Positions 3,311-43,768 of a stretch of DNA of 64,000 bases are shown piece after piece. The translations under genes were made by a program, and so were the position numbers. Numbering within the stretch: the first letter of the stretch is position 1; each line of letters opens with the position of its first letter. Source of the stretch: Chloroflexota bacterium (lineage in GTDB: Bacteria > Chloroflexota > Dehalococcoidia > GIF9 > UBA5629); NCBI GenBank assembly GCA_016875925.1, contig VGOO01000002.1:4431-68430 (forward strand), read 5' to 3'. Under the pieces are notes generated by a model, which did no database searches, had not been told where the DNA came from, and saw nothing but the letters and a program-made list of their open reading frames with translations.

Positions 3311-3392
3311 CGCAATGACGTTTTGGGCCACCCTCACCTTAATCCCCTCCCGTCAAGGGAGAGAAAACTGGAGCAGGAGTGTCATGCCTCGG
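3311..3392 (+). repeat. Intergenic repeat family B, copy 2
   Basis: cgcaatgacgttttgggccaccctcaccttaatcccctcccgtcaagggagagaaaactggagcaggagtgtcatgcctcgg. Same module order as copy 1. It runs directly into A-repeat copy 1. Confidence 0.7.
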
Positions 3393-3448
3393 CAAATCGG
3401 GATGCCTGCAAGATAAATGGTGGGTTTTTCAAACCCACCCTACGGCAC
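3381..3448 (+). repeat. Hairpin repeat family A, copy 1 (ggtgggt-loop-acccacc-ctacgg)
   Basis: gtcatgcctcggcaaatcgggatgcctgcaagataaatggtgggtttttcaaacccaccctacggcac is about 88-90% identical to 4178-4243 by hand alignment. Confidence 0.75.
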
Positions 3449-3510
3449 TAGTGCTGTGCGCTTGACAAGCTGGATGTGTTTGATGTATTCTTTACCCATA
3501 GGGTGTAAGG

Positions 3511-4177: not shown

Positions 4178-4243
4178 GTCATGCCCCGGTAAATCGGGAT
4201 GCTTGCAAGATAGATGGTGGGTTTTCAAACCCACCCTACGGTG
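4178..4243 (+). repeat. Hairpin repeat family A, copy 2
   Basis: gtcatgccccggtaaatcgggatgcttgcaagatagatggtgggttttcaaacccaccctacgg. It ends 1 nt before the stop of the convergent gene 4244-4705. Confidence 0.75.
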
Positions 4244-4705
4244 CTATTGCTGTGTCGGTGGTGACCACTGGAGTAGCAATGCTTCGGAGGGGACTATCTG
4301 CGCTTGATATGCTCCCACGTGGCCGTATTTGTTACCGTATTGGAATTTGCCGGTTATGCTGATTTTGCCGTAGCGTTCGGTGGGGCCCATCATCTGCTGC
4401 CGGTAGAGCTGGTCAAAGACGTCACGGGGTATGCCTCCTTCTATCCACATCATCTTGCCCGCCGGCACCAGATGCCCTGGAGCGTGTCCGGAGTATTCCA
4501 GCCTTTCGCACAAAACTATGACCTCGAAGCCGTGGAAGTAGAATCCCTCTATTACGATTTGCTTGCCGTTGTACCTGGCTGGGTCAGCGAACAGTTGGTC
4601 GAAGGTGACTTGTGGCGTTTTGGTCGGCTGCATTCCGCTGCAGCTAATGGCCAGACATGAGAGGGATATTGCTAATATGGAGGCTAGTGCAACATACCTG
4701 TTCAT
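4244..4705 (-). CDS. Hypothetical lipoprotein
   Basis: 153-aa ORF with an N-terminal signal peptide and lipobox (ILAISLSCLAISCSG). I recognise no domain. Confidence 0.6.
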   Translation of the reverse strand: MNRYVALASILAISLSCLAISCSGMQPTKTPQVTFDQLFADPARYNGKQIVIEGFYFHGFEVIVLCERLEYSGHAPGHLVPAGKMMWIEGGIPRDVFDQLYRQQMMGPTERYGKISITGKFQYGNKYGHVGAYQAQIVPSEALLLQWSPPTQQ

Positions 4706-5577: not shown

Positions 5578-5710
5578 CGTCGCTCGTCGCTGGTCGCTCG
5601 TCTAAAGGCAACAGCCGTGAGGCAATAGGCAAGAACCAAGATGCAAGATGAAAGTGGCAAGAAGCAAGATGGAGGATAAAGCTCGAAACTTGCAACTTGC
5701 AACTAACGAC
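5578..5710 (+). repeat. Degenerate heptanucleotide tandem array H2 (19 units)
   Basis: cgtcgct cgtcgct ggtcgct cgtctaa aggcaac agccgtg aggcaat aggcaag aaccaag atgcaag atgaaag tggcaag aagcaag atggagg ataaagc tcgaaac ttgcaac ttgcaac taacgac, all in one phase. Confidence 0.8.
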
Positions 5711-5791: not shown

Positions 5792-6997
5792 ATGGAGAGC
5801 TACAAGGTCTATGGGTATAGGTGGGTTGTCCTGGCTGTGTACATGTATCTATGTGCCCTGACCCAGCTTTACTGGCTGAATTTTGCGGCCATTGATACTT
5901 ACCTGGAAGCGCGTCTGAATATAACTGCCATGAGCGTCGGCGTGCTCACGCTGGTCTTTCCACTGGTACAGGTCTTGCTCACCATTCCCGCCGGCATGGT
6001 CATCGATAGAAAGGGATTTAAATATGGCGTGGGCATTGGCGCGCTGTTTACCGGCATATTCGCTATGCTCCGCCTGGTGAACCCCGGCTCCTACACCATC
6101 CTGCTGGTATCCCAGATAGGCATTTCAATGGGGCAGCCTTTTGTGCTGAACGGCGTTACCAAGCTGGCCATGACCTGGTTTCCTCAGAAAGAGGAGGCCA
6201 CTGCAGTGGGACTGGGTTCGTTAGCTCTGTTCATAGGCATGATGGTGGCTTTGGGGGCAACGCCTATACTGGTAGAGTCATTCAGCTTTGGGACAATGCT
6301 TATGGTCTATGGCATCCTGGGCATTGTGGGCATATTGCTGTTCTATGCTCTGGTGAAATCCAAGCCTGAGACAGCTCCACGCGAGGTAGTAGAGGAAGAG
6401 GAGATTTCCAATTGGGCAGGAATCAAGACGATTCTTAAGATGAGGGACTTTGTCATCCTGGGCTTTGTGGCCTTGATAGGAATAGGCGTGTTCAATGGCC
6501 TGGCTACCTGGCTGGAGAAGATTTTGAATGAGCTGCACGGAATTTCCATGACCGATGCCGGCACCATAGCTGCTGTATTGATACTCAGCGGCATGCTTGG
6601 CTGCATTATCATTCCTATAGTTTCGGATAAGGTGATGAAGAGAAAACCCTTCCTGTTGTTGGCATCTTCTGTGGGAGCCTTGTCCATCGTCTTTCTGATG
6701 TTAGCCAAGGGTTTTGCGCTTAATATGGTCAATGGCGTTGTACTGGGCTTTTTCCTTATCTCTGCTCTGCCCATAATGTTGACCATGTCTGCCGAAATTA
6801 CGGGAGCCAGGTTTGCTGGAATCTCGGTGGGGTATCTGCAACTCCTGGGGAATGCGGCGGCAGTGGCTATTGTTCCGCTGATGGAAGTAATGCGCGGAGC
6901 TACGCAGCACTATGCCTGGCCTTTGGCCTTCCTGGCGATATTGCTGGGCGTATCTTTTGTACTGGCAACCCAGATAAAAGAAACCATGAGGCGCTAG
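5792..6997 (+). CDS. MFS transporter
   Basis: The start is taken at ATG 5792, preceded by aaggggggag. The ORF-track start 5648 translates the heptamer array. Hydrophobic helices run throughout. MFS motif A-like loop: PAGMVIDRKGFKYG. Confidence 0.85.
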   Translation: MESYKVYGYRWVVLAVYMYLCALTQLYWLNFAAIDTYLEARLNITAMSVGVLTLVFPLVQVLLTIPAGMVIDRKGFKYGVGIGALFTGIFAMLRLVNPGSYTILLVSQIGISMGQPFVLNGVTKLAMTWFPQKEEATAVGLGSLALFIGMMVALGATPILVESFSFGTMLMVYGILGIVGILLFYALVKSKPETAPREVVEEEEISNWAGIKTILKMRDFVILGFVALIGIGVFNGLATWLEKILNELHGISMTDAGTIAAVLILSGMLGCIIIPIVSDKVMKRKPFLLLASSVGALSIVFLMLAKGFALNMVNGVVLGFFLISALPIMLTMSAEITGARFAGISVGYLQLLGNAAAVAIVPLMEVMRGATQHYAWPLAFLAILLGVSFVLATQIKETMRR

Positions 6998-7004
6998 AGG
7001 CAGC

Positions 7005-7074
7005 AGGCGTGAGGCAATAAACTAGATGCAAGATGCAAGTGGCAAGGTGCGTCGCTCGGGGCTCGTCGCTCGTG
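7005..7074 (+). repeat. Degenerate heptanucleotide array H3 (10 units)
   Basis: aggcgtg aggcaat aaactag atgcaag atgcaag tggcaag gtgcgtc gctcggg gctcgtc gctcgtg. Confidence 0.75.
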
Positions 7075-19328: not shown

Positions 19329-19419
19329 TGGCGGAGGGGGTGGGATTCGAACCCACGTCCCGATACAATCGGGAAACGGTTTTCAAGACCGTCGCCATCG
19401 TCCACTCGGCCACCCCTCC
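19329..19419 (-). tRNA. tRNA-Ser (anticodon UGA)
   Basis: The reverse complement reads GGAGGGGTGGCCGAGTGGACGATGGCGACGGTCTTGAAAACCGTTTCCCGATTGTATCGGGACGTGGGTTCGAATCCCACCCCCTCCGCCA. 7-bp acceptor stem, anticodon loop CU-UGA-AA, long variable arm, T-loop GGTTCGAATCC, encoded CCA. Confidence 0.9.
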
Positions 19420-19530
19420 CAAAAACCATCCTAGTATAGGGAATCAGCTTCACTTTTAGCAACCTGACACCTGAAACAGCAGTACCAGAACAAATCCAAT
19501 CTATTGTCTAATATTAATGTTGGATTGATA

Positions 19531-19851
19531 TTAGGAGGTCAGAGTATTATTGCCCATATCATTCTGCAGCGCTCCTTTGCCATAGCCTTCTTCTTCCAGC
19601 TTTTCCATGAGTCGGGCAGCCCTGGGGTAGCCGATACGCAAGCGGCGCTGCAAAAAGGAAGCTGAGATGTTTTTATATTCTATGGCTAGCTGTCTGGCGG
19701 CTTGCAGCATGGCATCTTCACCGTTTTTTTCAACTGAATTTAGTTGTTCCATGTCCTCAAGCCTGACCGGTTTAACCTCAGGTTTTCTTTGGTTACTCCA
19801 GAAATCGACTATCCTCTCGATTTCAGCATCGGAGATAAAAGTCCCCTTTTC
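19531..19851 (-). pseudogene. Duplicated 3' fragment of ftsK (gamma/winged-helix domain); possibly a stand-alone 73-aa product from an internal ATG
   Basis: It translates as ..GTFISDAEIERIVDFWSNQRKPEVKPVRLEDMEQLNSVEKNGEDAMLQAARQLAIEYKNISASFLQRRLRIGYPRAARLMEKLEEEGYGKG. 19573-19847 aligns without gaps to 21931-22205, with about 13 mismatches in 275 by hand count. Confidence 0.7.
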
Positions 19852-21567
19852 TTATTCATTCATGGCATATTCCCCGTTTAAGGGAAATACATATTTCTCC
19901 CATACCCGGTTGTACTGTGCCTCGTCTCCCTTGGCATTGAGCAGCATAATATCTTTGCAGTAGGCTCTCTGCGCGTCCGTGGTGTTGTGCAGACCATAGA
20001 TCTGCAGGGCAAAGAGGGCGAAGTCGCGCACCATAAAATCGAAGATCTGGTTTACGATGTCCACGTCAATTTTGTCAAAAGCAACCTGTTCCAAGATAAG
20101 CTGGCCGTAGACAACGATGGAAAACATCTCACCCAGGGGCAGGGAGAATGAGGGATCCATATCCTGTGCCGCATCTGGGCCGGCTTTCTCCAGAAACGCC
20201 TTGAATAGCTCGATCTGATCCATAAAGATGGCGACATTCGGAAGTGTTCGGCTGGCGTCGAAGACAGGGCGATAATCGTGGAACTGCACGGCACCTAAAC
20301 CCTTTGTTGGTCCCTGATTGAACAGGAAGAGATCGCCCTTTGCGGAAAAATCGGGCATCACTGGCGAATAGGTAGCAGGATTGAAGAAGTAGTTTTTCAT
20401 GAACTTGCGGATAAGCTGGATATTGACGTGAACCGTTCCCTCCAGCTTGGATGGGCCACGGATGTCCTGGGCGCCCAGGGCGAAATACGTGTCCTTTTCG
20501 AAACCCTTGGCGGCAATGACGTCCCAGAGCAAATTGATGACTTCCTCGGCCTGTAGGGTGACTTTCATCTTGCTGGTCGGGTTATAGAGCAGGTAGCGTC
20601 GGTCAGTTTCATTGGCGTTGCGGAAATAGTCGGTTGCGCGTCGCTGGTAGAGTTTCATCCCCACGATACGGAGCCAGGCATCCATGAAATTCTTCTTCAC
20701 ATGGGGCATGTTGGTAACGGGCATACCGTAAAGGATGCGGTTGGCCGCGTGAGTGATAGCTTCGTAAAAGCAATGCTCGGAAACGCCGATGGAGGCCGGA
20801 CCGATATTGAACTTACCGATGTTGACCGTGTTGAGCGCCGCATCCCAGGCGGACGAGCCTTTCTCGAGAATATCGTCCTCGCCGATGGGGTAATCGTGGA
20901 GGGCAAAGTTGGCAACATATTCCTGATGGGAGATAACGTTCCTCTTGAGTTCGTAAGCCTTATGCCGGTAATTGGTGACGAAAAAGCAGTAGTCGTCCGT
21001 GCCATCCCTGATCCTGCCTAAGGTGGAGACCATCTCTGCCTCATTGCCGTTCCCGATGTAGTATTTTTCACCGTTGGCCAGCCACCCGCCGTCTTTTTGC
21101 GGCGTCAGGGACAATTCGGTGCCGTAGATGTCGGCGCCATGGTCGCGTTCTGACAGGCCGAAGGCGAAGATCGCTCCTTTTTTGAGGAGGGCTGCCGCCT
21201 TCTGCTTGGCCTTCTCGTTGCCGCTCATCCAGATAGGTCCCAAACCCAGAATGCTTACCTGAAAACAGTACCAGTACCCCAGCCCATAAAAGGCCAGAAG
21301 CTCGCTGTAATCATTATTACGAGCCGTATCCCACCGACAGTCAGGATCGCCGCTTCCATAGCGACTCGGCGTGAGGAGTTTGGCGAAGATCTGCTCTTTT
21401 CCGATAAAATCGACAAATTCACGGTACCAGACTTTTTTATTGAAATCTTCCGTCAGACGGGTTTTTCCCATCGTCTCAAAGAAGGCGATGGTCTTCTCCA
21501 TGATAGCCCGGGTTCCCTCATCCGCCGTGAGGCTTCGGTATTTCTTGGGTTGCAGCAAATAATTCAT
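19852..21567 (-). CDS. Acyl-CoA dehydrogenase family protein (long, about 570 aa)
   Basis: AFGLSERDHGADIY, GEKYYIGNGN, and a helical C-terminal domain with ..IRGPSKLEGTVHVN. Confidence 0.75.
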   Translation of the reverse strand: MNYLLQPKKYRSLTADEGTRAIMEKTIAFFETMGKTRLTEDFNKKVWYREFVDFIGKEQIFAKLLTPSRYGSGDPDCRWDTARNNDYSELLAFYGLGYWYCFQVSILGLGPIWMSGNEKAKQKAAALLKKGAIFAFGLSERDHGADIYGTELSLTPQKDGGWLANGEKYYIGNGNEAEMVSTLGRIRDGTDDYCFFVTNYRHKAYELKRNVISHQEYVANFALHDYPIGEDDILEKGSSAWDAALNTVNIGKFNIGPASIGVSEHCFYEAITHAANRILYGMPVTNMPHVKKNFMDAWLRIVGMKLYQRRATDYFRNANETDRRYLLYNPTSKMKVTLQAEEVINLLWDVIAAKGFEKDTYFALGAQDIRGPSKLEGTVHVNIQLIRKFMKNYFFNPATYSPVMPDFSAKGDLFLFNQGPTKGLGAVQFHDYRPVFDASRTLPNVAIFMDQIELFKAFLEKAGPDAAQDMDPSFSLPLGEMFSIVVYGQLILEQVAFDKIDVDIVNQIFDFMVRDFALFALQIYGLHNTTDAQRAYCKDIMLLNAKGDEAQYNRVWEKYVFPLNGEYAMNE

Positions 21568-21612
21568 AAGCCCTCCTTATTTTATGAAGTCGATAATTTT
21601 CTGATAGATCCT

Positions 21613-21747
21613 TTAAATGTACTCCGCAATCTCGTTTTTCTGGACATTTAGCTCTTCGACGTGCTTGACCGAGTTGAGCAGTCCGATTTCTTCATAATAA
21701 CGAATGGTCCGCTTAGGTTGCCCCTTAAAAGGGTACCACTTTTTAAT
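21613..21747 (-). pseudogene. MerR-family HTH remnant (no start codon, about 44 codons)
   Basis: The minus-strand frame reads IKKWYPFKGQPKRTIRYYEEIGLLNSVKHVEELNVQKNEIAEYI*. RTIRYYEEIGLL is the MerR recognition-helix signature. The first helix and the dimerisation helix are absent. Confidence 0.35.
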
Positions 21748-21906
21748 TTAGAGTCGCCACCAGTACAGCTTCTGGACCCGGTGGTCGGCAGTTGAATGCA
21801 CGATGCGGTCGTGGCTGGAAGCTCCTCTTACCAATTAAACAGCACCCATTCTTGATCTCCAGTCTAAATTGATACTGGACTCGTTTTCGGGTGGTAGGTC
21901 AGATTA

Positions 21907-24543
21907 TCACTCATCATATTTTTCTGCCGTTCCTTTGCCATAGCCCTCTTCCTCTAGCCTTTCCATAATTCGGGCAGCCCTGGGGTAGCCGATACGCAGG
22001 CGACGCTGCAAAAAGGAAGCTGAGATGTTTTTATATTCTATGGCTAGCTGCCTGGCGGCTTGCAGCATGGCATCTTCACCGTTTTTTTCAACTGAATTTA
22101 GTTGTTCCATGTCCTCAAACCTGACCGGTTTAACCTCGGGTCTTCTTTGGTTACTCCAGAAATCGACTATCCTTTCGATTTCAGCATCGGAGATAAAAGT
22201 CCCCTGAAGGCGTTTTGGTTTGCTGGCGTCTGTGGGCATGTACAGCATGTCGCCTCTGCCCAGCAGTTTCTCGGCTCCGGCAGAATCGAGAATGGTCCTT
22301 GAGTCCACCTGGGACGTGAGCGCAAAGCTGATGCGCGTGGGGAAATTGGCCTTGATGAGTCCGGTTACTACGTCAACAGATGGACGCTGGGTAGCTACAA
22401 TGAGGTGGATGCCGGTTGCACGTGCCAGTTGGGCTAAGCGGCACAATGTTTGCTCTACCTCGTCAAAAGCTAACATCATCAGGTCAGCCAGCTCATCGAT
22501 GACCAGCACTATATAGGGCATTGTATCGTCATGCTGTCGATTTGCATTGTAGCTATCGATGTTGCGAGCCCCAGCCTGTGCAAACCTGTGGTAGCGGTTG
22601 TCCATCTCCTGCATTAGCCAGCGCAGCGCCAGTATTGCCTTGTCAGAATCCACAACCACTGGAGCTATGAGGTGGGGCAAACTATTGTAATTGACTAGCT
22701 CTACTCGTTTTGGATCAATCATGATCAACTGCAGGTCATCGGGGGTATTGTGTATGAGGAGGCAGCAAATTATAGAGTTGAGGCAGGCGGTCTTGCCGCT
22801 GCCAGTAGCGCCGGCAATAAGTAGATGGGGCATTCTATCCAGGTGGGCAGCTACTGTTTCTCCTCCTGCTCCTTTGCCCAGGGCCAGAGCCAGCTTTGAC
22901 CTGGCATGTGCCTTCTGAAAAGCGGCGCTCTCGATTACACCACGTAGATTGACAAGACTGAAGGTAGTATTGGGCACCTCAATGCCCACCACTGATTTTC
23001 CCGGCACCGGAGCTTCGATTCTAATGCTTGGCGCGGCCAGCGCCAGGGCAAGGTCGTTAGCCAGGGCACTGATACGGTCTACCTTGACCCTGGTCTTTGA
23101 TATCTCCTCAAGCCGGGTGTGAGCATTGCCAAGTTCGTCTCGCTCTCGGACCCTTTTGTATTTGCGGTCCCAACCTGGCTCGACTCCGAACTGGGTTACT
23201 GTTGGCCCAACGTTAATCTGGACTACTTTAGCCTCAACACCGTAGCTGTTTATGGCCTCTTCGATGAGCTGTGCCCGCTTCTCGATGTCACTCTGGCTTA
23301 GCTCTATTTCCGTGGGCTTATCCAGAATATTTACTGGCGGCAGGTACCAGCCACCGGTGGTAAACACCGACTGGTATTTTATTGGCCCATCTGACTCGGG
23401 AGCAAGTATTTTGTGCGCTGGTGGAGGGGTTATGATGGGGGTTTCTGTAACAGTCTGTTTTTCCCGCTGTGGGGGCGTTTCTGTTTTTGGTGGTGTGGCA
23501 ACTACTTCATTAAAAAGCTGTATTTCTCTGGTAGCAGGGACTGCTGGCGTTTTTGGAGGCATAACACTGATGGCTTTGATAACCGGTTGTATTTCCCTGG
23601 GGGGAGGCATTGTGGGAGTTGTTGGAGGCGTGATGCTGAGAGCTTGTGTAATATGTTGCTTCTCTTCCACAGCAGGCACTTCGGTTGTTTCTTGAGGTGC
23701 TGCGCTGACAGCTTCTATGTCTGGCTGTTTTTCCTCGAGAACAGGTGCTTCTTCTGTTATTGGAGGCGTGGTGTCTACTGGTTGCTGTTCCTCAGGCGTA
23801 GGTTCTTCCGGTTGAGGCATGACAACGGGGGCTTGTAAGTCTGACTCCTTTTCCTCTATGCTAGGGATTTCGTCTTCTGTTGTAGGAATGACACTGGTGG
23901 TTTGCGCAACCGGCTGTTTTCCCTCTGTGGCAGGGGCTTCAGGTGTTTCTGGGGGTGTGATGCTGGCAGCTTCCATGACCGACTGTTCCTCCGGAGCAGG
24001 CACTTCGGCTGTTGGAGGTGTGATATCCGTGGCTTGTGTCACTGGCTGTTTTTCCTCGGGAGTGGACACACCGGTTGAAAAGGGCATAATGACTGTGGTT
24101 TCTGTACCTGTTTCTTCTTCCTCAGAGGAGGTCACTTCAGGTGTTTTTTGAGGTGTGGCGCTGATGGTCTCTGTAACAGGTTTTTGCTTTTCGGGAGCGG
24201 GTGCTCCAGCTGAAAAAGGCATAACAACCTTGGCTTCTGTATCTGCCTTTTTCCTTTCGGTTCTAGCGAATTGGTTGTCTGTTTCTGATTTGGTCGGTCC
24301 AGGTTTGAATTTGGGCTGACGCTGGCTGGTGATGCCTGATGGTGGTGCCAGCGGTGGTGTAGCCGGTGACCTCGCTGTTTGAGGCTTAGGTGGTTTTCCC
24401 TGTGGCGGCATTGCCTGCCGCTTGCTGCCGAAAAGAAAACCACAACTGGGGCAACGACCGGTTGCCTTGTTTATCTTTATCCCGCAACGTGGGCAATTGT
24501 TAGGATTTGTTATAGTTCGTTCTATATTGGATGGTCTTGGCAC
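21907..24543 (-). CDS. ftsK: FtsK/SpoIIIE DNA translocase with an N-terminal zinc ribbon and a repetitive P/T/E-rich linker
   Basis: N-terminus CPRCGIKINKATGRCPSCG. Walker A LIAGATGSGKTACLNS, Walker B YIVLVIDELADLMM, ATQRPSVDV, and gamma domain ISASFLQRRLRIGYPRAARIMERLEEEG. Confidence 0.9.
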   Translation of the reverse strand: MPRPSNIERTITNPNNCPRCGIKINKATGRCPSCGFLFGSKRQAMPPQGKPPKPQTARSPATPPLAPPSGITSQRQPKFKPGPTKSETDNQFARTERKKADTEAKVVMPFSAGAPAPEKQKPVTETISATPQKTPEVTSSEEEETGTETTVIMPFSTGVSTPEEKQPVTQATDITPPTAEVPAPEEQSVMEAASITPPETPEAPATEGKQPVAQTTSVIPTTEDEIPSIEEKESDLQAPVVMPQPEEPTPEEQQPVDTTPPITEEAPVLEEKQPDIEAVSAAPQETTEVPAVEEKQHITQALSITPPTTPTMPPPREIQPVIKAISVMPPKTPAVPATREIQLFNEVVATPPKTETPPQREKQTVTETPIITPPPAHKILAPESDGPIKYQSVFTTGGWYLPPVNILDKPTEIELSQSDIEKRAQLIEEAINSYGVEAKVVQINVGPTVTQFGVEPGWDRKYKRVRERDELGNAHTRLEEISKTRVKVDRISALANDLALALAAPSIRIEAPVPGKSVVGIEVPNTTFSLVNLRGVIESAAFQKAHARSKLALALGKGAGGETVAAHLDRMPHLLIAGATGSGKTACLNSIICCLLIHNTPDDLQLIMIDPKRVELVNYNSLPHLIAPVVVDSDKAILALRWLMQEMDNRYHRFAQAGARNIDSYNANRQHDDTMPYIVLVIDELADLMMLAFDEVEQTLCRLAQLARATGIHLIVATQRPSVDVVTGLIKANFPTRISFALTSQVDSRTILDSAGAEKLLGRGDMLYMPTDASKPKRLQGTFISDAEIERIVDFWSNQRRPEVKPVRFEDMEQLNSVEKNGEDAMLQAARQLAIEYKNISASFLQRRLRIGYPRAARIMERLEEEGYGKGTAEKYDE

Positions 24544-40260: not shown

Positions 40261-41076
40261 TTAATCTCCGTTGTCCTCCTCTTCTTCCTCCTCCAGGTCT
40301 TCCTCTTCCTCAGGCGGCCATACCGGCTTGGTGTAGCGGTCTATGAATTCTCCCATAGCTTCAGCAGCGAGCTTTTTCATCTCCTCTTCAGATTCCTTAG
40401 CCACTGTTGTAAGCTCGCTTAAATCGACATCTATATTCAAGACTTTGGCCAGCGCGTCGGCAACTGCTAGGGCAGCCTTGGGGTTAGGTATTCGCGTGGC
40501 ATACATAGGCACTTCGCCAAGCAGGCAGACACCCTCCATTTTCCTTTCCTTGGAAACTCCCAGGAAAAGGCCGTTTAGGCCAGCAATCTGAAGGTTGCCC
40601 CGCAGAACCAGATTGAATTTCTTCAACTCGTCGATTGCATTCTGGCTGGTGGCTGCTAGCCAAACCCTTGGTTGCTCTGTGTGGTGGATTCTGGCAATAG
40701 CGGCGGCGCAGGTATATACTCGTTTAGCCTTGAACTGCTGGGCAACATCGAGCACGCAGTGAGCTAACTCATAGCCTTTGATGCCTGGTTGCTCATCTCC
40801 GATGAATAGGAGCAAGTCTCTTTCCGATTTGGTGTTGTGCCAGTAATAGAACTTGCTCTCTGGGAATTGGGGTGTCTCGATTATGTTGTTCTTGACCATG
40901 ACACCGATGGGGTCGAAGAAGTCAAAAGGCTCGATTTCGCCTATCTCCTCGGCACCGAGTTTGTCTTTTATGTACCTGGCGATTATGAGCGCCACATTGC
41001 CGATACCAGGCCAGGCTGCTAGAAGGTCACAGGACTTGATATGTGGCTCTTTATAGATTATCACCGGACCTTCCAT
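40261..41076 (-). CDS. PAC2 (proteasome-assembly-chaperone-2-like) family protein with an acidic tail
   Basis: LLAAWPGIGNVALIIARYI.., LLLFIGDEQP, and a C-terminus PPEEEEDLEEEEEEDNGD. Confidence 0.7.
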   Translation of the reverse strand: MEGPVIIYKEPHIKSCDLLAAWPGIGNVALIIARYIKDKLGAEEIGEIEPFDFFDPIGVMVKNNIIETPQFPESKFYYWHNTKSERDLLLFIGDEQPGIKGYELAHCVLDVAQQFKAKRVYTCAAAIARIHHTEQPRVWLAATSQNAIDELKKFNLVLRGNLQIAGLNGLFLGVSKERKMEGVCLLGEVPMYATRIPNPKAALAVADALAKVLNIDVDLSELTTVAKESEEEMKKLAAEAMGEFIDRYTKPVWPPEEEEDLEEEEEEDNGD

Positions 41077-41085
41077 GTCTATTCC

Positions 41086-42390
41086 TCAGCCATTCTTTGT
41101 TGTAACCGAGAGTTCAAGGCAATAGAGATGGGGTGTATAGAGAAAGCCGCCAACCCATCTGGCATCCTTGCCTATCCCCCCCAGTTTTTTCAGGACATCG
41201 AACGCATTGCCTGAGACCATGGTATTTTTGACTCGACCGGTTATCTCGCCTCTCTCAATTTTATAGCCAAGCAACACGTTGCCGCTGAAGTCTCCATTCA
41301 GGATGTTACCTTGTTCGGCACCCATCAAGAAGTCTATGACCAGTCCCTCTTTTATGTCCTTGACCATGTCTTTGTAGGAGAGGTTGCCCGGGGTTGCTAC
41401 CAGCGAGTTTGGCGATGGTGTGGGCATGCCCCCTGCCCTGGTTCCGTTACCTGTGCTTTTCTTGCCGGCAAGTGCGGCTGTTTGCAGGTCATAATAGAAA
41501 TTTGAGATTACTCCGCTTTCGACAAGTGGTGTGCGCTGGCCAGGCACGCCTTCATCGTCGCAGGGGCAACTGGCTACCTGGTAGGGAAGAGTAGCATCGT
41601 CCCAAAGCGAGAAGGATTTATCAAAGACCTGTTTGCCTACTTTATCTTTCAATGGTGAGGCGCCCTCGAGCACGGTTTTCCCGTTGAATGCTGCTACCAG
41701 TGGTGACAGAAGGGCGCTGGCTACTCCCAGCGGCGTGAAGACGACAGGCATTGGCCCAGGGGATATGTCGGTATTTATCCTGGCTAATTCCAGTTGCCTG
41801 GTGACTTCTGCCACAACTATCTCTGGGCTGCGTATGGGATGGCACGAGCTCTGGCTATCGCCGACGAAGAGCATATCATCATTCCGTACCAGCACACCTT
41901 CGAGGCTGATATTGAAGAAGCTCTTTTGATATTCGGCTCTGTTGCCCTGTGAGTTGGCGATGTGTACCGATGTGATGCCTTTACTCACTGCTGCTTCACA
42001 TACCAACTCGGGAGTGTGTTTGAGAAGGGTATCAATCATCTGCTGTCCTATCTGCACCATGTCTTCTATGGCTAGTCTGTCCACCTGTGGGTCTAAAACT
42101 TGGACTGCGGGATAGGACTGGCTACCTGGGAAATCGAATCTAGCCTCGGCGCCGAATGTACAGGTTTCCAACGCCATATCAACCATTTTCTCTGGTTTAG
42201 CAAAGCCGTTGACCTGGGCAAACCCAATCCTGCCGTTTTTAATCAGCCGCAACGCTGTGGTGGTACTTTCTTTGGTATGGATTTGCTTTAGGCGATTGCC
42301 TTCGAAGCGGACTGGCGTTGTCTTTGTTGTGGCATGGAAGACCTCGGCCTGTTCGGCAACTTTTTTAGCTTGAGATAGAATGTCTTCCAT
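41086..42390 (-). CDS. pmbA: TldE/PmbA metalloprotease subunit
   Basis: TldD/PmbA-fold family by length and motifs (..GNGTRAGG..PSPNSL..). The start is taken at MEDILSQ (42390), 4 nt after the tldD stop. Confidence 0.8.
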   Translation of the reverse strand: MEDILSQAKKVAEQAEVFHATTKTTPVRFEGNRLKQIHTKESTTTALRLIKNGRIGFAQVNGFAKPEKMVDMALETCTFGAEARFDFPGSQSYPAVQVLDPQVDRLAIEDMVQIGQQMIDTLLKHTPELVCEAAVSKGITSVHIANSQGNRAEYQKSFFNISLEGVLVRNDDMLFVGDSQSSCHPIRSPEIVVAEVTRQLELARINTDISPGPMPVVFTPLGVASALLSPLVAAFNGKTVLEGASPLKDKVGKQVFDKSFSLWDDATLPYQVASCPCDDEGVPGQRTPLVESGVISNFYYDLQTAALAGKKSTGNGTRAGGMPTPSPNSLVATPGNLSYKDMVKDIKEGLVIDFLMGAEQGNILNGDFSGNVLLGYKIERGEITGRVKNTMVSGNAFDVLKKLGGIGKDARWVGGFLYTPHLYCLELSVTTKNG

Positions 42391-42394
42391 TTTG

Positions 42395-43768
42395 TTAGCT
42401 ACCCCCGACCAGGCAATGGCGAATTCTGATATGTGGGCTGCCGTTGGAAACTGGCAGTGGTGATTGTCCTGCTTTGCCACAGCCGCCTCCCTGGTTCATA
42501 TCCAGGTCATTTCCGATGGCGTCGATATTGGCCAATGTAGTGAAGACATTGCCGCTTAGCACCACTGGGCGAAGCAGTTCTGCGATTTTGCCATTGCGTA
42601 CCATGTAGGCTTCGCCTGCGGAGAAAGTGAACATCTCAAGGCTGGTGGTACCCCCATACCAGTCCTTGGCGTAAATGCCTTCTTTTATCTCACTGAGCAT
42701 ATCCTCGAGAGCGACTTCACCTGGCTCGATAAATGTGTTGGTCATACGCACTATGGGGGGATAGCGGTAGTTTATGGCGCGGGCGTTGCCTGTGGGCTTT
42801 TCTCCCATCATGGCTGCTGTTTCGCGTGAATGGAGTCTGCTTTCCAGGACTCCTTCCCTGATTAGATAGGTCTTTGTGGCTGGGACACCCTCGTCGTCAT
42901 ATTTGTAGCTGCCTCGTAGTCCCGGGACAGCAGCGCCATCGACGATATTGAGATGCTTGCTGCCGAATTTGCGCCCCAGAACCATAAGTTCCTGCAATCT
43001 CTTGTTTTCGTGGACATGGTCAGCTTCTGAGAGGTGGCCGAAGGCTTCATGGGCGAATACACCAGCCAGTACAGGGTCCAGAATGACGGTATATTCCCCA
43101 CCTTTAGCTTGTGGGGCTGAAAGTAGATTGACTGCTCGCTGTGCCATGTCCTTTACTTTTGGTTGTAGACCCTCGATGGCTGAGAAATCACCGAGACTGC
43201 CTATGCTCAGGCCGACCTGCTGCACCTGTCCATCTGCTGTGGCGATGGCTGCCAGGCGCAAGCCTACGTCTATCCTTTCCTGTTCGATATAGGTGCCTTC
43301 GGAATTGGCAAAGCAGACCTTCTTCTGGCTATCGTGATATCCGATGGTTGATGTCTGTATCTTTGGTGTGCTCAGGATGAGGTCGTTGTATTCGTCTAGC
43401 AGCTCCTTTTTGGGAGCTAAGGGTACATCCAGTGGAGACTTCTTGGATTTGGCGGTTACCTTATCTAGCATCGGCGGCATCGGGCTGAATTTGCTTTCTT
43501 CTTTGTCTACTAACTTAGCTTGCTTCACAGCCAACTTGACTTTGTCACTCAGCTCTTTGGTGTCATTGAAACTAACGAAGCCCCAGCCGCCTTTCACCAG
43601 GGCGCGGACGTTGCCTCCCAAGCTAGAGGTCTTGCCGATCTCCTCGAGACGCTTGCCCCGATATACGATTCGGGTCAGCGAGCTCTCTTCCAGCCGAATC
43701 TCCAGGTACTCAGCATCGTGCTCCTTCAGGGCGCTGGTGAGCAGGTCTTGTGTTCTGCCGTTTGGCAA
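42395..43768 (-). CDS. tldD: TldD metalloprotease
   Basis: The HEAFGHLSEAD metal-binding motif (HExxxH-type of TldD), and GGGCGKAGQ near the C-terminus. Confidence 0.9.
   Translation of the reverse strand: MPNGRTQDLLTSALKEHDAEYLEIRLEESSLTRIVYRGKRLEEIGKTSSLGGNVRALVKGGWGFVSFNDTKELSDKVKLAVKQAKLVDKEESKFSPMPPMLDKVTAKSKKSPLDVPLAPKKELLDEYNDLILSTPKIQTSTIGYHDSQKKVCFANSEGTYIEQERIDVGLRLAAIATADGQVQQVGLSIGSLGDFSAIEGLQPKVKDMAQRAVNLLSAPQAKGGEYTVILDPVLAGVFAHEAFGHLSEADHVHENKRLQELMVLGRKFGSKHLNIVDGAAVPGLRGSYKYDDEGVPATKTYLIREGVLESRLHSRETAAMMGEKPTGNARAINYRYPPIVRMTNTFIEPGEVALEDMLSEIKEGIYAKDWYGGTTSLEMFTFSAGEAYMVRNGKIAELLRPVVLSGNVFTTLANIDAIGNDLDMNQGGGCGKAGQSPLPVSNGSPHIRIRHCLVGGS

Follow-up and report, generated by a model that had tools for sequence, protein, structure and literature searches.

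The 64-kb window analysed here, a stretch of contig VGOO01000002.1 (assembly GCA_016875925.1), carries an acyl-CoA dehydrogenase (ACAD) gene that lies between an intact ftsK gene and a displaced, headless copy of the ftsK 3′ end. By its closest relatives and its gene context, the DNA between the two ftsK ends is shown to have been acquired horizontally from a Syntrophales-type donor. The history that we favor, with moderate confidence, is microhomology-mediated capture of this module behind ftsK, which would have been followed by concerted evolution of the duplicated ftsK end. Positions are those of the 64-kb window, and L-numbers are the labels of retrieved contigs that were compared with it.

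The whole locus, consisting of ftsK, ACAD, the ftsK fragment, tRNA-Ser, sucC and sucD, is on the minus strand. An earlier reading of these letters, here called the sequence-only reading, had described a 275-bp repeat of the ftsK end with about 13 mismatches and about 95% identity. This description holds with small adjustments. A repeat search of the window gave an ungapped direct repeat of 278 nt, 19570–19847 (copy A) and 21928–22205 (copy B), with 14 mismatches and 95% identity. The longest identical run is 67 nt (19694–19760 and 22052–22118), and the pair is the sole long repeat within the window. Copy B comprises the last 92 codons of ftsK, including linker and gamma winged helix. Past the ftsK stop codon the copies retain a weaker, gapped similarity for about 65 nt more, so that the duplicated unit reaches ~21862 beside ftsK and, in decayed form, ~19505 beside copy A. 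This extended similarity contains a 2-nt (CT) indel, as a result of which ftsK ends ..KGTAEKYDE and the fragment ends ..KGALQNDMGNNTLTS.

The intact ftsK (24543→21907) ends where the sequence-only reading had placed its end. It encodes 878 aa from a GTG start, with a zinc-ribbon N-terminus, a P/T/E-rich repetitive linker, and alpha, motor and gamma domains (Pfam FtsK_alpha, FtsK_SpoIIIE and FtsK_gamma; NCBIfam PRK10263). A spacer of 340 nt separates it from the ACAD open reading frame (ORF; 19852–21567, 571 aa), whose stop codon TAA (19854–19852) is in frame with, and directly abuts, the headless FtsK_gamma fragment (19851→19531). Next to the fragment stands tRNA-Ser (19419→19329). The same reading had reported the abutting stop codon, the position of the fragment beside the tRNA gene, and the presence of ACAD and a MerR-like remnant between the repeats, all of which are found as described. 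It had also taken the arrangement for the footprint of an insertion or duplication. The footprint is borne out, with the interval horizontally acquired and the MerR-like piece a true remnant of a donor gene; the implied recency is not, and is taken up below.

The host is identified by its FtsK as a member of Dehalococcoidia: the 80 FtsK relatives compared are all from Dehalococcoidia/Chloroflexota metagenome-assembled genomes (MAGs), with motor identities of 73–92%. No named Chloroflexota relative of the ACAD protein was found among its best 120 matches. The protein's own small clade shares 90–96% identity, and the named matches, at 81–89%, are from Smithellaceae, Smithella, Syntrophus, Desulfobacteraceae and ‘Deltaproteobacteria’; with Syntrophales/Smithellaceae genes the identity at the protein level is 85–90%. 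In Smithellaceae the gene is located in a conserved diderm core with FadR/GntR, LptD, AsmA, rplM and rpsI. The donor-type contigs closest by ACAD protein identity, L093 (89%) and L177 (90%), have a 680-aa AMP-binding (acyl-CoA synthetase) and MerR fusion gene directly upstream of ACAD. The MerR remnant of the window (21595–21714) matches residues 573–592 and 655–678 of the 680-aa L093 protein in tblastn and blastn comparisons; since only these parts are matched, the piece is read as the 5′-truncated, internally deleted 3′ end of the donor upstream gene. The same remnant is present in L087. The ACAD genes found in a Dehalococcoidia context are 92–96% identical to one another in nucleotide sequence and 78–86% identical to those of the donors, and they therefore nest inside the donor diversity.

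The acquired gene is, by its substitution pattern, under purifying selection, with omega values of 0.11 against L087 and 0.04–0.05 against L093. It is assigned to the ACAD family by Pfam Acyl-CoA_dh_1 (49.5 bits; cut-off 22.4). Acyl-CoA_dh_M scores 27.5 bits, under its cut-off of 33.3, there is no match to the N-terminal domain, and all NCBIfam equivalogs score the protein far under their cut-offs. Base composition was uninformative as a signal of transfer, the third-position GC content (GC3) of ACAD (0.67) being inside the range of host genes (0.57–0.69). A search for viral carriage of ACAD gave no viral match.

The right end of the acquired DNA can be read in detail. On the 3′ side of the ACAD stop codon, donor L177 reads ..TAG GACGACGGGACTTTTCCACGTCG.., the ftsK linker at the joint reads ..CTTCAGGGGACTTTTATCTCC.., and the window junction reads ..TAA GAAAAGGGGACTTTTATCTCC..; the aligned junction sequences are TAGGACGACGGGACTTTTCC for L177, CAGGGGACTTTTATC for ftsK and TAAGAAAAGGGGACTTTTATC for the window. 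The joint sits on a 9-nt microhomology, GGGACTTTT (19837–19845), which is common to the donor ACAD 3′ flank and the ftsK linker and lies inside the donor terminator hairpin. Short identity exactly at the joint, the signature of microhomology-mediated insertion, was found at the right joint only.

On the left, a spacer of about 148 nt, U (21714–21861), separates the duplicated unit from the point at which similarity to the donor sets in. In the sister lineage represented by L087, U is conserved at 96%, and this is its only match among the sequences retrieved; no homology was detected to the donors, the flanks of L179, the region downstream of copy A, or L097. A structured RNA or riboswitch was considered for this conserved spacer and rejected, as U has no Rfam family and no unusual fold (fold z-score 0.04).

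Two other contigs, both short, look like earlier stages of the cassette's history. In L179, amid unrelated flanks, ACAD is accompanied by a mini-MerR ORF that is intact (55 aa) and shows the same internal deletion. The MerR remnant of L180 is decayed as in the window; with it stand ACAD and the whole donor terminator hairpin, after which come 49 nt resembling the post-stop segment of ftsK, without gamma coding sequence. The local alignment score of these 49 nt is 40–42, versus a shuffle maximum of 30–36. As a separate observation, the mini-MerR and ACAD module of L179 is flanked by an exact 15-nt direct repeat (AAACTGCTGCTCGGT) at 12–26 and 2373–2387, for which the probability of chance occurrence is roughly estimated at ~0.003. 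The repeat spacing is 2361 nt, compared with 2358 in the window and 2360 in L181, and its context is unrelated to ftsK.

The duplication is older than its 95% identity had implied to the sequence-only reading. Contigs L087, L088, L090, L181 and L182, from other samples, share this architecture but have diverged in sequence. In this sister lineage, whose flanking genes stand at dS 0.65–0.78 from those of the window, copies A and B are only 82% (L087) and 77–78% (L181) identical, and the post-stop segments of both lineages have diverged strongly. The CT frameshift of the copy-A tail is common to the window and L087, and every full-length FtsK examined keeps the tail frame of copy B (..GTAESNGQ, ..GAAESDGQ, ..GAAEKYDE). 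It follows that the duplication predates the lineage split and that copy A is the redundant copy.

The similarity of the copies in the window has another source. In a comparison of the four copies over 276 aligned coding positions, there were nine sites at which the two window copies agree with each other and differ from an identical pair in L087; no sites grouped by orthology and none crosswise. Within-genome copies share states lacking in their sister orthologues, which is the pattern of concerted evolution. Despite an overall identity of 99%, L087 and L181 are set apart by a patch of copy A (~positions 126–190): in L087 it matches ftsK exactly, and in L181 its sequence is old and diverged. 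This patch is direct evidence for gene conversion from ftsK into the fragment. The conversion tract stops immediately ahead of the frameshifted tail. Gene conversion, and not recent duplication, thus accounts for the 95% identity in the window.

The cassette and its flanks differ in divergence. Between the window and L087, dS is 0.124 for ACAD, 0.645 for the FtsK alpha and motor domains, 0.726 for SucC and 0.782 for SucD, and the non-coding U and MerR remnant differ by ~4%. The mismatch density shifts at ~21930–22050, inside copy B, and exactly at the joint of ACAD and copy A, ~19850. Since the dS values are discordant and the junctions are identical in both lineages, the cassette, or else the flanks, must have been exchanged by homologous recombination after divergence. 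Single-step models (tandem duplication, one Campbell integration, or one allelic import) were rejected; each misfits the divergence of at least one segment.

The state before insertion was sought in relatives. The sequence-only reading had suggested looking for ftsK directly beside tRNA-Ser, and no such neighbor was found in 80 species-level loci or among the sucC-anchored contigs listed. Neither tRNA-Ser, sucC, ACAD nor a second gamma copy was present within 6 kb of ftsK in any of the 80 species-level loci of GTDB. The closest relative of sucC among the matches listed, L097 (dS 0.36), has thiL, not ftsK, upstream of tRNA-Ser. Its homology to the window starts at 19463–19466, at the −35 box of the tRNA promoter. 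The linkage of tRNA-Ser and sucCD, also present in L099 and L100, is by these comparisons an old one. No second partial copy of tRNA-Ser, which would mark an island end, is present in the window. The closest FtsK group (L007–L031) has no flanking genes in common with the window, and synteny around ftsK is not conserved in that group. More distant relatives have ftsK ~3 kb downstream of homologues of the window genes at 40261–43480. Two full-length ftsK genes occur in several related Dehalococcoidia genomes: L011 (6001–10244), where they stand in tandem, L007/L028 (UBA5620) and L017/L046 (TCS170221_bin_292). With tandem or two-copy ftsK and shifting flanks, paralogy and relocation of ftsK seem to be common in the clade.

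The history that best accommodates these findings would begin with a small module from a Syntrophales-type donor, containing the truncated MerR remnant and the ACAD gene. In an ancestor of this Dehalococcoidia lineage it would have been joined just behind ftsK by illegitimate, microhomology-mediated recombination. Roughly 345 nt from the 3′ end of ftsK, made up of its last 98 codons and the post-stop segment, would have come to lie on both sides of the insert, and for this reason ftsK stays intact and a redundant, promoterless gamma fragment lies between ACAD and tRNA-Ser. Most likely the first insertion took place just after the ftsK stop codon, and later templated repair or gene conversion copied the gamma-coding part onto the right flank, up to the GGGACTTTT microhomology. 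The copies would then have evolved in concert through repeated conversion of the fragment by ftsK, and the cassette would have been exchanged between diverged lineages by homologous recombination. The fragment itself would be mostly a by-product. No claim is made for the exact order of events.

Several points weigh against this history. The left junction cannot be classified, since U has no homologue from which its origin could be read. No ‘empty’ allele, either ftsK followed by tRNA-Ser or ftsK with native downstream DNA, was found among the contigs, and the pre-insertion state is consequently reconstructed and not observed. The apparent intermediate L180 is a contig of only 1.9 kb, connected to ftsK through 49 nt of similarity. 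The discordance in divergence could also reflect replacement of the flanks instead of the cassette. Finally, simple models do not accommodate all segments; copy A, for instance, is highly diverged between the lineages in its 5′ part and the adjacent ACAD is not, so that extra steps of conversion or decay must be assumed.

There is some reason to ask whether the fragment is instead a maintained gene, from which a free gamma domain of 59–73 aa would be made by read-through of ACAD transcripts and would act in trans, for instance on XerCD/dif or at KOPS-like motifs. The fragment matches the gamma domain more strongly (PF09397; 62.5 bits, cut-off 30.6, E = 3e-17) than does the intact FtsK (58.1 bits), and it aligns to the FtsK-gamma structures 2J5P, 2VE8 and 5DCF, with phmmer matches that include 2J5P and 2VE8. 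The segment ..SFLQRRLRIGYPRAARxMEKLEEEG.. aligns to the gamma recognition helix. Like the known gamma domains (PF09397; 2J5P, 2VE8/2VE9; the XerD-gamma fusion 5DCF), the fragment holds the three-helix core. Unlike them, it is detached from the motor, the wing is short in both the fragment and the parent FtsK (each matches only profile positions 3–48 of 63), and the tail of the fragment is altered by the 2-nt frameshift.

The substitution data can be read in favor of such a gene. The ratio of dN to dS between the window copies, a comparison that the sequence-only reading had proposed, gives nine synonymous and five non-synonymous differences (K/R, L/F, L/I, K/R and A/T; omega 0.14), a bias towards silent or conservative change. 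In the unconverted L181, the last ~30 codons contain about four fragment-specific changes, all synonymous in an alignment read by eye, a pattern with a probability of roughly p = 0.004–0.01 under neutrality. No terminator is found between ACAD and the fragment. An isolated gamma domain is able to activate XerCD-dif recombination in E. coli (PMC3130261). Against this, the ATG that starts the 73-aa ORF inside copy A (19531–19752), which contains the gamma helices and then the frameshifted tail, is ATA in the sister lineage, in which a 59-aa ORF begins at another ATG. One sister haplotype has an in-frame TAG upstream, and in the other, helix 1 has the changes D>G, E>H, Q>L and A>V. Both lineages have the frameshift in the tail, all three codon changes specific to copy A of the window are non-synonymous, and a Shine-Dalgarno-like GAGGA lies only 1 nt from the ATG, a poor ribosome-binding context. 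Most of the conservation is explicable by conversion from the parent gene, which is itself under selection. On balance, a maintained gamma gene appears rather unlikely.

Side observations from other gamma-only sequences belong here. The beginning of L092 (1–850; GCA_016783225.1, a Dehalococcoidia MAG) has at the contig start a 64-aa gamma-only ORF (77 aa from stop to stop), 72 nt after an HpaB-family gene; this may be a second, independent combination of a metabolic gene with a headless ftsK fragment. Other gamma-only proteins were rejected as stand-alone genes, for they are mostly contig-edge cuts or frameshift-split ftsK genes (L091, L178). In L178 (1380–1480) ftsK is split just before the gamma domain by a 35-nt deletion, and in L091 (6121–8222), a contig whose naming suggests a long-read assembly, it is split before gamma by a 264-nt gap. 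These splits are probably sequencing errors or pseudogenes that inflate the count of stand-alone gamma proteins.

A different history, which we consider improbable, is Campbell-type integration, in which a circle with one ftsK 3′ end, U, the MerR remnant and ACAD entered the ftsK 3′ end by a single homologous crossover. Loop-out and re-entry into related genomes would then explain both the direct repeats that flank the cargo and the youth of the cassette: the cassette and the copy-B post-stop segment are 96% identical between lineages, compared with 74–90% for ftsK, the copy-A tail and sucCD. A pair of 278 nt at 95% identity, with a 67-nt identical run, is enough for RecA-type recombination. 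This model, however, requires the copy-A tail to be the host original, and the ALQN-type tail occurs only in fragments and never in a full-length FtsK. No full-length FtsK with an ALQN tail, the expected naive or deletion allele, was present among the proteins retrieved, in a search that returned only proteins of similar length. The young 5′ part of copy A that the model predicts is not observed, the naive ftsK–tRNA-Ser target is absent from all 80 species-level relatives and from the sucC-anchored contigs listed, and neither a circle nor a deletion junction was found among the retrieved sequences.

Loop-out across the repeats nevertheless appears mechanistically possible and would leave an intact ftsK with the frameshifted tail. 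Weighing against it are the persistence of the arrangement through substantial divergence, the selection on ACAD, and the lack of a deletion allele among the contigs. An extended form of the same idea, to which we give equally little credence, pictures a recombinase-free, homology-borne unit whose circle, carrying one repeat copy, would re-enter diverged Dehalococcoidia through a single crossover at the conserved gamma-coding ftsK end and would restore the essential gene on every entry, with the displaced gamma domain perhaps serving as a trans-acting winged-helix protein.

Less probable still than Campbell integration is a decayed site-specific element, that is, an island in the ftsK 3′ end that supplied a substitute for this end and from which the integrase and most genes have since disappeared. 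The position is typical, at the 3′ end of an essential gene beside a tRNA gene, the target ORF is regenerated, and the adjacent tRNA-Ser looks like an active hotspot in the sister lineage, with an 84-bp repeat, two cargos and an empty site (described below). Streptococcal integrative and conjugative elements (ICEs) target ftsK, at its 5′ end, rbgA, guaA and other genes and form direct repeats of 12–54 bp (PMC4701971). The locus resembles them in the insertion by an essential gene and a tRNA gene, the preserved target frame, and the cargo between direct repeats; it differs in having no integrase, in its repeats of 278–345 nt, in the use of the ftsK 3′ end, and in the fusion of the cargo's own flank to the target. 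Short identical att cores were not found, the repeat being 278 nt (~345 nt with its decayed part) with 14 mismatches.

The MerR remnant and ACAD are all that the insert holds, and no integrase or transposase is present in it or in the precomputed Pfam lists of genes within ~10 kb. The cargo's native 3′ flank is fused to ftsK at a microhomology, a truncated donor gene stands on the other side, and there is no backbone. None of the 80 relatives has a second gamma copy near ftsK. Nor are there marks of a transposon or insertion sequence: neither a transposase nor terminal inverted repeats were found at the cassette ends, and the sole inverted repeat in 18–24 kb (21 nt, 76%) is located elsewhere.

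The weakest alternative, already effectively refuted, is an assembly or binning artefact, a chimera of a Syntrophales contig with ACAD and a Dehalococcoidia contig, fused at a collapsed repeat: ACAD is foreign to the phylum and short-read unitigs end inside the repeat, but the same joins occur in two independent JGI assemblies, both inner junctions are crossed by unitigs from four runs, the architecture recurs in at least five contigs of other samples (77–96% sequence divergence), and the bases at the junction match neither donor nor host alone. Contigs of the two JGI metagenomes (Ga0194125_10000990 and Ga0194127_10010768) match the window at 100% identity, and unitigs of the four SRA runs cover 19818–21999. 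The source metagenomes have the identifiers JGI 3300020221 and 3300020222 and SRR7989281, SRR7979708, SRR7979709 and SRR7008010. Given the same arrangement in independent assemblies and in a diverged sister lineage, it is real, and the assembly error that the sequence-only reading had named as its refutation is ruled against. Judging by the sample and MAG names, the material presumably comes from Lake Tanganyika.

Microhomology-mediated capture followed by concerted evolution has precedents in known processes. Illegitimate and homology-facilitated illegitimate recombination in naturally transformable bacteria produce microhomology joints and usually delete or replace recipient DNA. The present locus is similar in that foreign DNA without a recombinase of its own was joined at a 9-nt microhomology, with truncated donor genes at the ends; it is dissimilar in the duplication of ~345 nt of target on both sides and in that only one junction can be classified. 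Duplicates that evolve in concert by gene conversion include the duplicated tuf genes and the rRNA operons. As in those cases, the within-genome copies are closer than orthologues (nine versus zero sites) and a conversion patch is seen between near-identical haplotypes. In contrast to them, an essential gene is paired here with a headless fragment of itself that has a frameshifted tail, and a foreign insert borders the tract. The locus is thus a fresh instance of known processes and no new type of system.

The tRNA-Ser(tga) gene (19329–19419; ARAGORN, Rfam tRNA) is preceded by a promoter-like TTGCTA-18-TATACT (19433–19462), and sucC (19284→18118), followed by sucD, begins 44 nt after it. In L087 (4385–6258, equivalent to ~19466–19329 of the window) an 84-bp direct repeat (98.8%), consisting of the tRNA-Ser promoter and the 5′ half of the tRNA up to the anticodon loop, brackets a 1.65-kb insert. 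The first base of this repeat, at the promoter, is also the base from which L097 and the window are syntenic. The insert has a 351-aa ORF with only a sub-threshold restriction-endonuclease-like (AHJR-like) match. L181 has the first 168 nt of the L087 insert followed by a different cargo, with a CARDB-domain ORF, and in L182 the site is empty. The anticodon loop in the sister lineage thus looks like a site-specific integration hotspot, at which insertion would restore the 5′ half and promoter of the tRNA gene. The 3′ side of tRNA-Ser is also variable: between it and sucC, L087 (6259–7176) has a 0.9-kb insert, absent from the window, with two small ORFs (127 and 89 aa), probably for membrane proteins, and L099 has 3.7 kb at the same place.

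Minor repeats are found elsewhere in the window. The ftsK linker (23516–23962) contains about five diverged 69-nt periodic units, 61–71% identical, that code for its P/T/E-rich sequence. These could be the reason that ftsK has been called at 834 aa in L001 and 771 aa in L002, versus 878 aa from the GTG, in contigs that are both sequence-identical to the window. Other repeats lie at 3381–3458 and 4178–4254 (55 nt and 36 nt at 87–89%, 797 nt apart) and at 5602–5675 and 6994–7046 (GCAAGATG-rich units of 53 nt).

The locus provides a well resolved case of natural gene acquisition across phyla in uncultured freshwater Dehalococcoidia. The gene context of the donor, one junction, a likely intermediate, and the later conversion and exchange between lineages can be read from the sequence itself. 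It also illustrates that high identity between repeats does not date a duplication. It is a candidate locus for the study of essential-gene ends as portable homology arms for cassettes, and of the expression of a detached FtsK gamma domain.

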